A DNA stretch of 63,971 nt, the filler included, from Licmophora abbreviata (Eukaryota), in the NCBI GenBank assembly GCA_900291995.1. It is 11 parts of 11 records of this genome, joined end to end, with 100 filler letters (N's around TTAATTAATTAA, not from the genome) between each part and the next. Parts side by side here need not be neighbours in the genome. Positions count along the whole stretch, not along the records: positions 30,276 to 32,845 come from OLMU01004477.1; positions 32,946 to 34,591 come from OLMU01004478.1; positions 34,692 to 37,434 come from OLMU01004479.1; 8 more parts are not named here. The stretch is one strand, 5' to 3'. The translations under genes were made by a program, and so were the position numbers. This document shows, one piece after another, positions 30,680 to 35,544 of this stretch; positions within the stretch are counted from its first letter, which is position 1; every line of letters starts with the position of its first letter. The notes under the pieces were generated by a model. It saw only the letters and a program-made list of their open reading frames with translations, was not told the origin of the DNA and did not search any database.

Positions 30680-32548
30680 TCAATAGCTACTCGTAAGCAT
30701 TTCCTGCACCATGTGTGTTGTGTAGAACATCATATGCGTTGCAATCAAGGCCACAACCTCGACACTCATCCTCGTCCACCACCACCACAACATACTTCCA
30801 AAGGCCACAAGCTGTCCAACAATCATGGGATGCGGAATCGTATTGTACGGGAATCCCTCGATCCACTCAGGCTTGACAAAGCCTAACTCACTTCCAAAGT
30901 ACGTCCGACAAAATCCCAACTGTGCCGTTGCCAAGAGCGTAATACCGAATCCCATCATGGCCAAGAGGATTCCGGGCGCATCCTGCGGCAACTCGATGAG
31001 AGGGACCATGCGAGAGCCCAAGTGCATGAGCGCAAGTGTCTTGTAGAGCTTCGCATCGCGCATCAAGTAGCCGTGTGCCACATTGTCTCGAAAGGCAAAG
31101 GTACAAATGTAAATGCAGTAGTGGCGAAAGGAGGTCAAGATCATAAAGACAGTGGGTGAAGTGCAGCAGTATGCGGCAGTGACGTAGACCACATTGCTCC
31201 ATCCGACGTGTTCTTCCCACATGGCATTGAACCAGGTCGTCAACCAGATCCACCAGGCCAATAAAAAGCCACTGATACCCTCTGGACGGAGTGTCTTCAA
31301 AAAGTTCCCACGCGCCCAGGTGTTGTAATTTGTATTGAGTCGAGCACAGAGATTTCCATACCAGTGCCATCCTTTGGGGTAGACAATATAATGGAGTTTG
31401 AGCAGGGAGCGACGCTCTTTGTTGACAACCCCCGGCACATGATCAATCCAATGCAACTCTCGATTGTAATCAAAGCCCAGTACACTGTAAATATCGACAA
31501 CTTGATCTTGCGAATTGTGTTGCAGATTGAAGCGAGTCCGTACCATGGCATTGGGCGTGACACCCACAAGGACACGATACAAGCTCGCCCCGGGCAAGAA
31601 CCAGTAGGGTCCATCCGTATGAGGCGTATAAAAGACAGCATCACTGTTGATATCCCTCTTGGCCCCCACCGCCGTGACATAGATTTCATTCATCTCCACA
31701 ACAGGTCGAATGTCAAAGTGCGTCTTGGAAAAGACGTTCCGAAATCCCGCATAGATGCTGGCATCGTCCTGCAGGAGCGTCGTGGGCCCACTCGTCGCCG
31801 GGCGGTCGTGCGGCCAGAGGTGGGTCGTTTCGGGAATGTGTGCGACCTGCGTGTGAATCCACTCTCGCAAGTCCCGTACGGCCTGTTGCGCACTGACCGT
31901 GGGCACCACGACGGTGCGATTTTTAGAAACAAAGAGTTTGGGAAGAAAGGAGTAGCGAAGGGTAATGGAGTCCAAGACGAGGGGGAGGAGCCAGAGGGTG
32001 TGGAGAAAGAGCATCGTGGGACGTGAGTAGAGGTAGGAGGCCATGTAGGTTTGTTCGGCAAAGACGTAGTGGGAAAGATCTTGGAGGAGGTATCCCAAGA
32101 GCATGGCTGCAAGACAGACTGTTAGGTGAGATTGTTCTTGTGTCATGAAAGTAGTGTCGATCCAAGCGTTGTTGTTGTTGTTGTTCCAGATCGAGTCGGT
32201 GACTTGATCCAGTTGAAGCTGCGGCAGTTTCATCATGGCCGTGACTAGGAGTGTGTGCAGGAGAGCGGTCCATTTTAGTGGCGTGGTGAGTAGAATGACT
32301 GCCATGTAAACGTAGACGACCCATTCGTAATCATAGTAATGGCAGAGCAGTGAAACAGCACCCCAAACTGCCATTCCTGTAGTAAGCATATGACATGCCA
32401 CGTTCAAGTCATGCTTGTGGTAGGGATGGAACTCATGACTGACTTGTGCGTAGGCAGCTTTGGAGATGAACGTGTTGTAGAGCGAGTATTTAGACGTAGA
32501 AGTAGACGGAGGCGTCTTATCCTTGACACTCGTAGTGGAAGTAGTCAT
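30680..32548 (-). CDS. Uncharacterised 622-aa membrane protein: Mpo1/DUF962-like N-terminus, HxD..H oxygenase-like middle, PEMT-like C-terminus
   Basis: FHPYHKHDLNVACH and LQDLSHYVFAE (Mpo1-like His motifs); SDAVFYTPHTDGPY...FDYNRELHWI...RSLLKLHY; LGFCRTYFGSELG...GFPYNTIPHPMIVGQL (phospholipid methyltransferase-like). Intronless ORF. Confidence 0.75.
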   Translation of the reverse strand: MTTSTTSVKDKTPPSTSTSKYSLYNTFISKAAYAQVSHEFHPYHKHDLNVACHMLTTGMAVWGAVSLLCHYYDYEWVVYVYMAVILLTTPLKWTALLHTLLVTAMMKLPQLQLDQVTDSIWNNNNNNAWIDTTFMTQEQSHLTVCLAAMLLGYLLQDLSHYVFAEQTYMASYLYSRPTMLFLHTLWLLPLVLDSITLRYSFLPKLFVSKNRTVVVPTVSAQQAVRDLREWIHTQVAHIPETTHLWPHDRPATSGPTTLLQDDASIYAGFRNVFSKTHFDIRPVVEMNEIYVTAVGAKRDINSDAVFYTPHTDGPYWFLPGASLYRVLVGVTPNAMVRTRFNLQHNSQDQVVDIYSVLGFDYNRELHWIDHVPGVVNKERRSLLKLHYIVYPKGWHWYGNLCARLNTNYNTWARGNFLKTLRPEGISGFLLAWWIWLTTWFNAMWEEHVGWSNVVYVTAAYCCTSPTVFMILTSFRHYCIYICTFAFRDNVAHGYLMRDAKLYKTLALMHLGSRMVPLIELPQDAPGILLAMMGFGITLLATAQLGFCRTYFGSELGFVKPEWIEGFPYNTIPHPMIVGQLVAFGSMLWWWWTRMSVEVVALIATHMMFYTTHMVQEMLTSSY

Positions 32549-33294
32549 GATGATGGATGGGACTCACAGGTACCAGGGATAGACTATTAGTATATATGTA
32601 GTATGTAGTCTATACACCGCACAGCACAACAAGCTGCTGACTGACTGATGCAATCTATTATGAGTCTTCTGCGCTTGTCTTTGTTTTTTCTTCCGAAGGA
32701 ATGTGTGAATCTTTGTGAGATTTTAGATTTTCATCTTCGCGGCGTTCCAAGCTTTGCTGTTCGCACAAAATAACGGCTCCCGCCTAAATCTTCGTCACTA
32801 CTGAGCGTACAATAACGATACTAGTGCTAGTAAAATTACTTATAANNNNNNNNNNNNNNNNNNNNNNNNNNNNNNNNNNNNNNNNNNNNTTAATTAATTA
32901 ANNNNNNNNNNNNNNNNNNNNNNNNNNNNNNNNNNNNNNNNNNNNCCTAGACACTTTCTACTCACACACGCTCGGTTGTACAAGAGGGAGTGTCATTGGT
33001 TCAAACACGACGTGGCCTCGCGTAGGATGCAACACATCGAATCTGGGAAGATTCAGTGCTTGTAGAAAGTGTACCAAGGTCTACTACGACGAATCTTCTG
33101 CGCCCCAAGATTCCATCGAAAGATCGATCGATTGGGAAAACTAAAAATTAACAGAGCCCGCGCAACAAGAAGCAACACTGTGAACCCGCTGTTGACTAGC
33201 AGCACGAGTATACTATCCTAGCAAGGCCTTGGTTGCTCTGTCTCTCCATCCTCTTCTCTGCAGCACCGTCAAGCTCAACACCATCAACACCACG

Positions 33295-35544
33295 ATGCTA
33301 TTGACCGACGCTGCTTCGCAACTGCTGACTTCGGCCATGTCTTCCTTCTCTACTACTTCCGCAGCAGACTCGTCCACCGCAACGACACTGGCCGTGGGCG
33401 CCGCCCTCACCGGCACCGCCCTCTACCTCCTCCAGAAGGCAAATCTCATTGAACACATCTGCAATCGCACTTACATTTACAACATTTGCTGGGAAGACCC
33501 CGCCGTCGACCGAGAAATCCTCAATATTCGCCCCCACGACGTCATCTTTCGCATCTGCAGCGCCGGCGATATCGTACTCGACTATGCCATCGAGGGACCT
33601 TCCAAAATTGTAGTCTGCGACATGAACCAGCATCAGCTCTTTCTCTTTGAACTCAAGATTAGAATGCTCCGAGATCCCCACCTCACCTACGACGAGTGGT
33701 GGGCGATCTGGGGAAGTAGCGACTGTCACACGGCAGTCCGTGTCTGGAAGAGGATGCGCCATACCATGAGTGCGGAAGCACGCAAGTGGTGGGATCCGCG
33801 CATTGAACGGACCTTTCGGAAGGGGTTTGCGACTTCGGGGAGTACGGGATTCTGCGCCAAGCTCCTCATCCCCTTCCTCATGTGGATGGTCGGTTTCAAT
33901 GTCCAGGAGTGGGCCGAGACGGGATTCTCCCACGACTATATTTCCAAACACTCCCATGTCATTCAGAACTCGGCAGTATGGTTCCGTCGACTCTTCCCCG
34001 GGATCCTGGCTCCCTTTGCGGGAGTCCCGCCCAATCAGATCGGACCCGAGTTCTACACCACAGAGTTCTATGAGGGGATCCTCCGGGAGATCTTTCTTGA
34101 CCCCGACTTTGGCGCTCACAATTACTTTTATCGCTTTTACTACGAAAAAGGATACAAGGACCAGACCTGCTGTCCACGAACGCTCCAGAAGGCCTTCTTT
34201 GAACCCCTCCGGGCCAACGCAGGCTGCTTCGAATGGCACCATGCCACCGTCCAGGATACCATGGAACGCGTCAAGCCCCATTCCTTTACCAAACTCGTCC
34301 TCTTGGATCACATGGACTGGATGCCCAACACCGTGGTGCACGACGAGTGGATCGCCCTGCAGCGCGCCACCGTCCCGGGCGCCCAAGTGCTCTGGCGCTC
34401 CGCTTTTACCAAGATGGACGACAAGCCCTTTTTCAACAATCTAGATATTGAAGATTTGAGTCCGCGTTGGTATTCCAAGGATCGTGTCAAGATGTATCCA
34501 GGTACCTTTGTGTCGCACATGCCCCGGGATGCTCTGCCCTGGGTCGATCCGGAGCCTTCGCTCTGTCAGAGGGCGTCGTTTGCGCGCAAGGNNNNNNNNN
34601 NNNNNNNNNNNNNNNNNNNNNNNNNNNNNNNNNNNTTAATTAATTAANNNNNNNNNNNNNNNNNNNNNNNNNNNNNNNNNNNNNNNNNNNNCAAGACAAC
34701 CACCAAGATGATCTTGCATCCCATCATGAGTGGTAGTGGTACTGTCAAGAATGCTCATGGAGACAAGATGTCCTCCTTCTACGCTGCTCAAGCCAAGGGA
34801 TACGATGCCGTCCGCGAAAACATGCTCGTGGCACGTCCCGAAATGATGTCCTCCTTTGGCCCCATCCAACAGGGCCACACGTGGCTCGATGTCGGTGGAG
34901 GTACGGGACGGAACCTTCACTACCTGCGTGCCCAACTCGATCTCTTTGAACGCATCGTCGTCTTGGACATTTGTCCTGAACTCTTGGAAATTGGTCAAGA
35001 GAATGCGCGCTTGTCCTTTACACCGGCACAGTGCGAACGCATCTCATGGGTCTGTCTGGACATTAACTCGCCCAATGTCCGGACCTTATTGCTTGCAAAG
35101 GATCAGGGAAATCCTCACAATGAGTACCGTGGCTTTGACACGATTACCTTTAGTTACTCCATCTCCATGATTCCGCAGTGGGAACAAGCGCTCGCGTCGG
35201 CGCAGACTTTGATGAGTGCGGAGGGACGCGTTGTTGTGGCGGACTTTGACACGTATACAGAAGAAGGCAAGTCGTGGAGTGATTTCTTCATTCGAACGTG
35301 GTACAAGCAAGATGGAGTGCGCATTGAGGCCAGGACGCGTCAAGTCATGACGAAAAAGATCTTTACTCCTTCCGAGTATACCATCACGACGGCGCGGTTC
35401 CAACGCAAGCTCTTTGGTGTCAACATTCCTCATCATGTCACGTGTTGCCGAAAGGGAACGGAAACGAATGCCAAGGGATTCCGTCGGCCGTCCAAGTTGG
35501 ACTTGATGGACTCGTCGTCGTGGGAAGAAAAAAAGATGGACTGA
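33295..35544 (+). CDS. BTA1: Betaine lipid synthase, BtaA domain (33295-34591) followed by BtaB methyltransferase domain (34692-35544), split by a spacer
   Basis: BtaA/DUF3419 motifs YIYNICWEDPAVDRE, CSAGD, DMNQHQLFLFELK, LLDHMDWM, VLWRSA; BtaB motifs SFYAAQAKGYDAVRE, WLDVGGGTGRNL, FSYSISMIPQW, VADF. Confidence 0.9.

Follow-up and report, generated by a model that had tools for sequence, protein, structure and literature searches.

Diatoms, brown algae and other marine protists contain, as a major phosphorus-free membrane lipid, diacylglyceryl hydroxymethyl-N,N,N-trimethyl-β-alanine (DGTA), which is also used as a marker of phosphorus stress at sea. Its isomer diacylglyceryl-N,N,N-trimethylhomoserine (DGTS) is synthesized by BtaA and BtaB or by the fused protein BTA1 (Klug & Benning, 2001; Riekhof et al., 2005; via PMC4796936 and PMC10685587), and BtaA together with BtaB is enough to produce this lipid (Riekhof et al., 2005; via PMC4796936). 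Labelling work cited in PMC10685587 and PMC6383925 suggested that DGTA arises from DGTS by decarboxylation followed by recarboxylation of the head group. The enzyme and the mechanism were called unknown in 2023 (PMC10685587), and our literature searches up to late 2026 turned up no paper naming a DGTA enzyme. Here we analyzed a stretch of 63,971 nucleotides of Licmophora abbreviata DNA (assembly GCA_900291995.1), referred to as the window, in which a BTA1 gene stands head-to-head with a gene for a 622-residue membrane protein, hereafter X. The sequence-only reading of the window had put X forward as a candidate for DGTS-to-DGTA conversion or another modification of betaine lipids, and this proposal is now supported by synteny, co-induction, distribution and linkage to btaAB in bacteria.

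The closest described gene arrangement is the plcP-btaA-btaB cluster, the 'type 1' context of phosphate-stress remodelling (Sebastian et al., 2016; PMC4796936). Eleven bacterial loci found here have the same order with a calcineurin-like, plcP-like phosphoesterase gene first, but carry X as a fourth gene after btaB, which the available text of PMC4796936 does not mention. X resembles BtaA, BtaB and BTA1 in pathway context, in being their neighbour in bacteria and diatoms and in being co-induced by phosphorus deprivation, but it contains neither a DUF3419 nor a class-I methyltransferase domain. DGTS needs no protein other than BtaA and BtaB, and X must accordingly have its place downstream of or alongside these two. 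Based on three independent lines, namely bacterial operons, diatom synteny and co-induction, we consider it close to certain that X is functionally linked to betaine-lipid metabolism. X is thus a candidate enzyme acting on the BtaA/BtaB product; the missing DGTS-to-DGTA converter is its most probable specific role, to which we give about an even chance.

The divergent BTA1 and X genes in diatoms

The gene pair is composed of the following features of the window.

30680..32548, minus strand: gene X, an intron-less open reading frame (ORF) for a polytopic membrane protein of 622 amino acids (aa), candidate betaine-lipid head-group-modifying enzyme
32549..33294, no strand: divergent intergenic region between X and BTA1, possibly a shared promoter, including the spacer 32846-32945
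33295..34591, plus strand: BTA1, BtaA-like part (DUF3419; PF11899, E 1e-66)
34592..34691, no strand: artificial spacer of 100 nucleotides (nt) within BTA1, standing for about 1 nt
34692..35544, plus strand: BTA1, BtaB-like part (class-I S-adenosylmethionine (SAM) methyltransferase) up to the stop codon (Methyltransf_23/12/25/31/11, E 1.6e-12 to 1.5e-6)

The start of X at 32548 and the first ATG of BTA1 at 33295 are 747 nt apart, with the spacer 32846-32945 counted in, which confirms the divergent arrangement with about 750 nt between the starts that had been described before. The true BTA1 start may lie further upstream of 33295; an N-terminal intron is present in the BTA1 gene of Phaeodactylum tricornutum (PtBTA1), as reported in bioRxiv 2024.07.11.603045. 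The window consists of 11 pieces joined by 10 identical 100-nt spacers, each of 44 N + TTAATTAATTAA + 44 N, which start at 20836, 30176, 32846, 34592, 37435, 42368, 50384, 55350, 59260 and 61545. The earlier caveat that a spacer separates the two genes holds for 32846-32945, but a second spacer, inside BTA1, had gone unmentioned. The two BTA1 pieces, with DUF3419 in the first and a class-I SAM methyltransferase in the second, map onto one uninterrupted 808-aa ORF of a diatom contig (L007): the BtaA piece shows 81% identity to its residues 131-532 and the BtaB piece 70% identity to residues 534-808. The first piece stops at residue 532 and the second starts at 534, each leaving one base over at the junction, so the spacer 34592-34691 hides about 1 nt. 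The gene order of the window over at least three pieces also agrees with that of other diatoms, and the spacers therefore apparently mark small gaps rather than joins between unrelated contigs. Reads of four sequencing runs placed on 30276-32845, leaving out 32165-32196 as a repeat, assembled only into contigs of 98-296 nt at a depth of 2-6, none of which reached the spacer.

We scanned metagenome contigs with the X family and obtained 25 loci, of which eight extend more than 1.1 kb upstream of the X homologue (about 1.1 kb in L016). BTA1 stands head-to-head with X in five of these eight (L007, L017, L018, L019 and L022). As L018 and L019 are duplicates, the five loci represent four distinct organisms, so that the head-to-head pair is found on uninterrupted contigs of four further diatoms. 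L016 shows too little upstream sequence to decide on BTA1. The adjacency of X and BTA1 is no assembly accident.

For P. tricornutum, PtBTA1 corresponds to Phatr3_J42872 (bioRxiv 2024.07.11.603045, where the primers are listed). Both genomic PtBTA1 primers are found in L007 without a mismatch, one at either end of its 808-aa BTA1 ORF, and in this contig X starts 1.2 kb upstream of BTA1 on the opposite strand. On the window, the reverse primer matches 35520-35541 with three mismatches. The PtBTA1 cDNA forward primer had no match in the window or in L007 within 2-3 mismatches; an upstream exon outside the matching part of the contig or a strain difference could account for this. The supplement of Alipanah et al. 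(2018; PMC5825098) lists Phatr2_42872 (BTA1, 'Methyltransferase with DUF3419-domain') with log2 changes of +2.31 and +2.73 after 48 and 72 h of phosphate deprivation. The gene with the preceding number, Phatr2_42871, is annotated there as 'predicted protein' / 'Phospholipid methyltransferase, putative' and as regulated by phosphorus deprivation only, with changes of +2.45 (48 h) and +2.90 (72 h). Phatr2_42871, which we take to be X, thus rises in step with BTA1. Judged by titles and abstracts, literature mentions of '42871' together with Phaeodactylum look coincidental.

To characterize the intergenic region, we compared k-mers among the BTA1-X intergenic regions of the window, L007, L017, L018 and L022. 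The 9-mer AAGATTCAC is common to four of the five regions and appeared in 0 of 50 shuffles. The core of this 9-mer, written YGAATCTH, occurs three times in the intergenic region of the window, at these positions.

32706-32713, plus strand: YGAATCTH site
33048-33055, minus strand: YGAATCTH site
33090-33097, plus strand: YGAATCTH site

These 3 sites compare with a shuffle mean of 0.13, and the corresponding values are 3 against 0.24 in L007, 4 against 0.21 in L017, 1 against 0.19 in L018 and 3 against 0.70 in L022. The whole window contains 10 sites, below the 16 expected from shuffles, and 3 of the 10 fall within the 646 non-N intergenic bases. The plant-type P1BS motif (GNATATNC) is absent from four of the five intergenic regions. 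Where BTA1 is not in view, YGAATCTH was counted upstream of X as well (L003, 2 against 0.21; L016, 1 against 0.25). The element thus recurs in the divergent X-BTA1 promoter regions of the five diatoms compared; L003, in which BTA1 is missing, also has it ahead of X. A motif similar to YGAATCTH is said to have been described for the phosphate-starvation regulator PtPSR.

Two further genes lie near the pair.

35739..37364, minus strand: ankyrin/PP2C phosphatase gene, ORF of 541 aa, tail-to-tail with BTA1
29131-29526, plus strand: ORF fragment resembling an ADP-ribosylation factor GTPase (translation judged by eye), in the piece before X

By tblastn, the PP2C gene adjoins BTA1 in L007, L018, L019 and L022, and adjoins X in L003, L004 and L017. 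It is retained beside BTA1 or X in every diatom contig of sufficient length; in L017 it lies on the opposite side of X, yet the BTA1-X pair is intact. The PP2C gene is a conserved syntenic neighbour. It might be a regulator of the pair or reflect mere conserved gene order. The ADP-ribosylation factor-like fragment fits an intron-containing eukaryotic gene.

Domain architecture of X

To assess the conservation of X we searched for homologues and found 181 in the searched length range, aligning end to end, with 51-67% identity and 92-100% coverage among the 120 listed. All named homologues among these 120 are diatoms (Seminavis, Fistulifera, Mayamaea, Nitzschia and MMETSP transcriptomes). An exhaustive profile-free search yielded 585 clusters at E<=0.001 and 132 clusters at E<=1e-30. 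Three alignments were used: A1 with 20 diatom sequences, A2 with 45 wider sequences and A3 with eight bacterial sequences. The AlphaFold2 model of X, built from 20 sequences, has a mean pLDDT of 75.8 and shows helices at residues 23-206, a beta-rich domain at 207-391 and helices at 395-619. X can accordingly be divided into three parts.

31943..32548, minus strand: X residues 1-202, His-rich helical membrane domain, weakly Mpo1/DUF962-like
31367..31942, minus strand: X residues 203-394, predicted 2-oxoglutarate (2OG)/Fe(II) oxygenase (double-stranded beta-helix), by fold and conserved residues
30683..31366, minus strand: X residues 395-622, helical membrane domain with a PEMT/ICMT-like end, Pfam match at residues 526-610

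The top Foldseek matches of the model were AndA, AusE, OkaE, FtmOx1 and PHD2. A wide VIA-align comparison of residues 203-414 gave Z 12.5 with AviO1 and AsqJ over 168-172 residues at a root-mean-square deviation of 3.2-3.5, and in the wide, all-against-representatives run nearly all of the 50 matches listed were 2OG/Fe(II) oxygenases. According to the model, the central domain has the double-stranded beta-helix core of this superfamily. H310-x-D312 and H366 are invariant in A1, and the equivalent columns are invariant in A2 and A3; we assigned these residues as the putative iron triad by spacing and strand position rather than by superposition. R379-R380-S381 follows 13 residues past H366, with an Arg column that is invariant in A1 and A3 and nearly so in A2, and R379 is the putative binder of the 2OG C5-carboxylate. 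The oxygenase centre is apparently intact, as judged from these columns, and the oxygenase domain is the best-conserved part of X in A1.

The central domain resembles oxygenases of the PhyH/AsqJ/AndA/prolyl-hydroxylase type in fold (Z up to 12.5), in the HxD...H triad and in having a downstream Arg, here of putative 2OG-binding role. It differs from them in having no sequence-level Pfam match, in being inserted between two polytopic membrane domains and in its substrate, presumably a lipid head group. A search of PDB sequences with the X family profile gave 0 matches at E<=10. Among 2OG oxygenases, gamma-butyrobetaine and trimethyllysine hydroxylases act on trimethylammonium substrates.

The C-terminal part matches PF04191 at residues 526-610 (E 3.8e-6; 27.7 bits against a curated cut-off of 25), in line with the PEMT-like domain that the sequence-only reading had noticed in X. 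At E<=0.01 the family is matched by 19 of the 20 diatom and 43 of the 45 wider members. PDB structure matches of X are dominated by the oxygenase domain. In the Atlas, residues 415-586 of the model of a Chromera homologue (P0131) align with two clusters, one of chordate PEMT and one of the bacterial ICMT family (TM 0.63 by row, 0.22-0.24 by query). The last ~85-170 residues of X are thus similar to PEMT/ICMT (PF04191, PF04140) by profile and, tentatively, by predicted structure, but the profile match is barely above the cut-off and this part makes up a single module within the 622 aa. Two conserved stretches, FPY..IPHPMI.GQ and HM.QE, we take to be similar to PEMT/ICMT-family motifs.

In the N-terminal domain, H41, H44, H46, N49, H98, Q156 and E165 are invariant in the diatom alignment; the invariant columns were drawn from A1 and A2. 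This small, His-rich helical membrane domain is reminiscent of yeast Mpo1 (DUF962), an Fe2+-dependent dioxygenase of 2-hydroxy fatty acids, from which it removes C1 in a single step (PMC10398889). The decarboxylating chemistry of Mpo1 would be well matched to the carboxyl loss proposed for DGTS. Some X homologues pass the PF06127 cut-off: 1 of 20 diatom and 11 of 45 wider members match at E<=0.01, the best with 25.9 bits against a cut-off of 24. X of the window, in contrast, has no PF06127 match at E<=0.1, and comparison of A2 by hhalign with one bona fide DUF962 protein (L141, PF06127 E 1.9e-29) gave a probability of 3%, that of A1 with the same protein 0.2%, on an unrelated region. Thus, of the two iron sites that had been proposed for X, one lies in a genuine 2OG/Fe(II) oxygenase fold, and the N-terminal one has weak Mpo1-like matches only; a second iron site is a lead rather than a finding. 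A run of six Asn at residues 122-127 (about 32168-32185) falls in a low-confidence, poorly conserved N-terminal loop that differs in length among diatoms.

Bacterial btaAB clusters and distribution of X

The strongest new evidence comes from bacterial gene context. A pattern-limited scan based on A3, with one genome per species for 185,579 prokaryote species, resulted in 26 bacterial loci. X is directly adjoined on its own strand by btaA- and btaB-like genes in 18 of the 26; in L039 the btaA/btaB matches are partial. The order plcP-btaA-btaB-X is found in 11 of the 26, with plcP identified by tblastn using the gene of L026. In L026 itself, the start and stop codons of the four genes overlap or almost abut, and Pfam identifies Metallophos (E 1.6e-10), DUF3419 (E 5.5e-121) and a class-I methyltransferase, followed by X. 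DUF3419 also lies beside X, with E 8e-107 to 5e-44, in a Calothrix metagenome-assembled genome (MAG), a Myxococcota chromosome, a deltaproteobacterial MAG and two Spirochaetaceae MAGs. Both DUF3419 and the class-I methyltransferase are confirmed by Pfam in L026, L044, L046, L048 and L050; in L049 DUF3419 is confirmed by Pfam and BtaB by tblastn alone. The linked loci span Planctomycetota, a cyanobacterial MAG, Spirochaetaceae MAGs and Myxococcota/deltaproteobacterial genomes.

Eight of the 26 loci have no linked btaAB, and six of these genomes carry DUF3419 elsewhere, so that BtaA is present in 24 of 26 X-bearing genomes. As background, 85 of 401 Planctomycetota genomes from an even draw carry DUF3419, and none of the 14 control genomes does. 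With three candidates scored per genome, full-length X was found in 1 of the 401, the query's own genome. Since X occurs in 1 of 401 genomes and DUF3419 in 85 of 401, we conclude that X is a rare accessory of btaAB and not part of DGTS synthesis itself, which agrees with BtaA and BtaB sufficing for DGTS. No classical DGTS bacteria were among the 26 loci of the pattern-limited scan.

Two kinds of gene recur near these clusters. A split transketolase-like pair (Transketolase_N, then Transket_pyr/C) directly follows X at 11986-14195 of L026, and transketolase-like tblastn matches lie close to X also in L030, L034, L039 and L051. It may be by chance that a thiamine-dependent enzyme adjoins a putatively decarboxylating system, or there may be a connection. 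Three loci, all planctomycete-type, have a gene for a Ser/Thr protein kinase immediately before the plcP/btaA cluster, namely L026 (5010-6830), L031 (6209-7855) and L039 (6683-8533), with TPR in two of the three.

We then compared the distribution of X with reported lipid types. Named X-bearing eukaryotes include diatoms (among them Chaetoceros and Thalassiosira-type), Chromera velia, the diplonemids Diplonema papillatum, D. japonicum and Rhynchopus, the choanoflagellates Monosiga and Salpingoeca, Corallochytrium and the prasinophytes Pterosperma and Pyramimonas; a partial X sequence was found in Amoeba proteus. In addition, a 548-aa X cluster of the Atlas has known members that are mostly Chlorophyta, and named bacterial relatives belong to Planctomycetota, Myxococcota and others. 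X-bearing bacteria include a Rhodopirellula strain (L026), Stieleria, Roseiconus lacunae and Plesiocystis pacifica SIR-1. D. papillatum is reported to contain 'a comprehensive set' of MGTA (the monoacyl form) and DGTA, with the homoserine isomer minor, and for C. velia both DGTS and DGTA classes are reported. Thus, among the named X-bearing eukaryotes with lipid data, D. papillatum, C. velia and diatoms make DGTA. Ostreococcus tauri is reported to hold DGTA as well, while X in Ostreococcus itself is not shown here. A quick maximum-likelihood tree placed the eukaryotic and giant-virus sequences in one clade (SH-aLRT 99) and the diatoms in a clade of their own (98), with the planctomycetes grouped apart (100); two bacterial rows on very long branches are unreliable.

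Proposed role of X, alternatives and significance

The DGTS-to-DGTA conversion is the best specific reading for several reasons. PtBTA1 alone makes DGTS in Nicotiana (bioRxiv 2024.07.11.603045, section 5) and P. tricornutum is reported to hold DGTA as its main betaine lipid, so this diatom must have a converter, for which the papers searched name no enzyme. The proposed loss and regain of the carboxyl can be started by iron oxygenases, and the X-bearing organisms analyzed contain DGTA. In the proposed mechanism, X would act on DGTS or its precursor. The zwitterionic head group would be kept in place at the membrane surface by the PEMT-like module and the helical domains, which may also bind SAM, and the iron centre or centres would oxidatively remove or relocate the DGTS carboxyl, as the labelling studies predicted. 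We infer this division of labour from the predicted modules only. A shared promoter with repeated YGAATCTH elements would switch on X and BTA1 when phosphate is scarce.

A number of observations weigh against this assignment. In L003 and L004, which belong to one organism, the PP2C gene lies upstream of X where BTA1 would be expected, and the adjacency is lost. The PP2C gene also belongs to the conserved micro-synteny, so inheritance of gene order could explain some of the adjacency in diatoms. Phatr2_42871 was equated with the X orthologue from its annotation, its consecutive gene number and the L007 contig, and homology searches with X over near-length and shorter-length ranges returned no protein named as P. 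tricornutum. Brown algae and haptophytes, which make DGTA, are missing among the named X homologues, names being available for part of the matches. The likeness of the N-terminal domain to Mpo1/DUF962 is, judging by the profiles, a weak resemblance and not membership. Two X-bearing bacterial MAGs have no detectable BtaA, and according to PMC10667739 DGTA has been identified in no cultured bacterium. Finally, giant viruses carry at least 80 loci (L052-L131) with a shorter X-like gene of 25-33% identity, mostly aligning to X residues ~200-510 and thus comprising the oxygenase domain and part of the C-terminal membrane domain. BtaA, BtaB or plcP lie within 10 kb of this gene in 0 of 80 viral loci, and DUF3419 was found in 0 of 3 searchable viral records, which are 29-47% complete. 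As the viral loci lack BtaA and BtaB nearby, the wider X family is not everywhere tied to betaine lipids, and the substrate of the viral X-like proteins may differ. The diatom alignment A1 found no viral relatives.

X might instead alter or turn over betaine lipids otherwise than by making DGTA, which we consider quite possible but less likely. Possibilities are hydroxylation of the head group or the acyl chains, synthesis of diacylglyceryl carboxyhydroxymethylcholine (DGCC) or of an undescribed bacterial betaine lipid, N-demethylation, or breakdown of the head group. The coupling to btaA and btaB in the genomes fits such a role equally, most 2OG/Fe(II) oxygenases hydroxylate, and the closest folds are all hydroxylases, desaturases or rearranging oxygenases. 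DGCC synthesis is likewise called unknown in PMC10685587, X is present in diatoms of the Thalassiosira type and in Chaetoceros, the use of DGCC is reported for T. pseudonana, and DGTA is so far unproven in bacteria. However, the co-induction with BTA1 in phosphorus deprivation points to synthesis over breakdown, the X-bearing organisms with isomer-level data (Diplonema and P. tricornutum) are reported to have DGTA as their main betaine lipid, and three domains exceed the needs of a simple hydroxylation.

A bolder form of the DGTS-to-DGTA conversion, which we consider improbable as a whole, is that X alone is the DGTA synthase of marine bacteria and eukaryotes and catalyzes an unprecedented reaction. 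One iron centre would strip the carboxyl from the trimethylhomoserine head group. The PEMT-like, SAM-binding module would supply a C1 unit that the 2OG oxygenase would oxidize to a carboxyl on the neighbouring carbon, and what was taken in 1992 for a 'recarboxylation' would in fact combine methylation with oxidation. The btaA-btaB-X genes would have been transferred together between marine bacteria and protists, and some oceanic DGTA would be of bacterial origin.

It is very unlikely that X and BTA1 are neighbours in diatoms by inheritance alone, with no bearing on function, and that X has an unrelated role. The PP2C gene kept in the same block, the L003/L004 diatom and the viral homologues away from BTA1 are in line with such an origin. 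They are opposed by the independent same-strand linkage in bacteria of at least four phyla, by the frequency of BtaA among X-bearing genomes (24/26 versus 85/401 in the background), by the parallel induction of X and BTA1, and by L017, which keeps the pair though PP2C has moved. There is equally little to be said for X as a phospholipid N-methyltransferase that makes phosphatidylcholine from phosphatidylethanolamine or its monomethyl form and lies near BTA1 as part of general membrane-lipid housekeeping: PF04191 is above its curated cut-off and sources label homologues 'phosphatidyl-N-methylethanolamine N-methyltransferase', but the PEMT-like part covers only ~85 of 622 residues, the oxygenase domain is the best-conserved part, the alignment to chordate PEMT clusters is confined to the last ~170 residues, and a cell that induced phospholipid synthesis in phosphorus deprivation, from an operon that begins with the phospholipid-degrading plcP, would be working against itself.

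Taken together, our analysis provides one concrete candidate gene for the DGTA step, with an orthologue inferred in the transformable P. tricornutum and found in culturable bacteria. DGTA is reported from bacterial size fractions of phosphorus-poor seawater, where its bacterial synthesis awaits characterization (PMC4796936); if X is the DGTS-to-DGTA converter, it would account for this DGTA. It would also serve as a gene marker distinguishing DGTS from DGTA producers in metagenomes, and would open to study an unusual enzyme with two iron-type modules and a PEMT-like module in one membrane protein.

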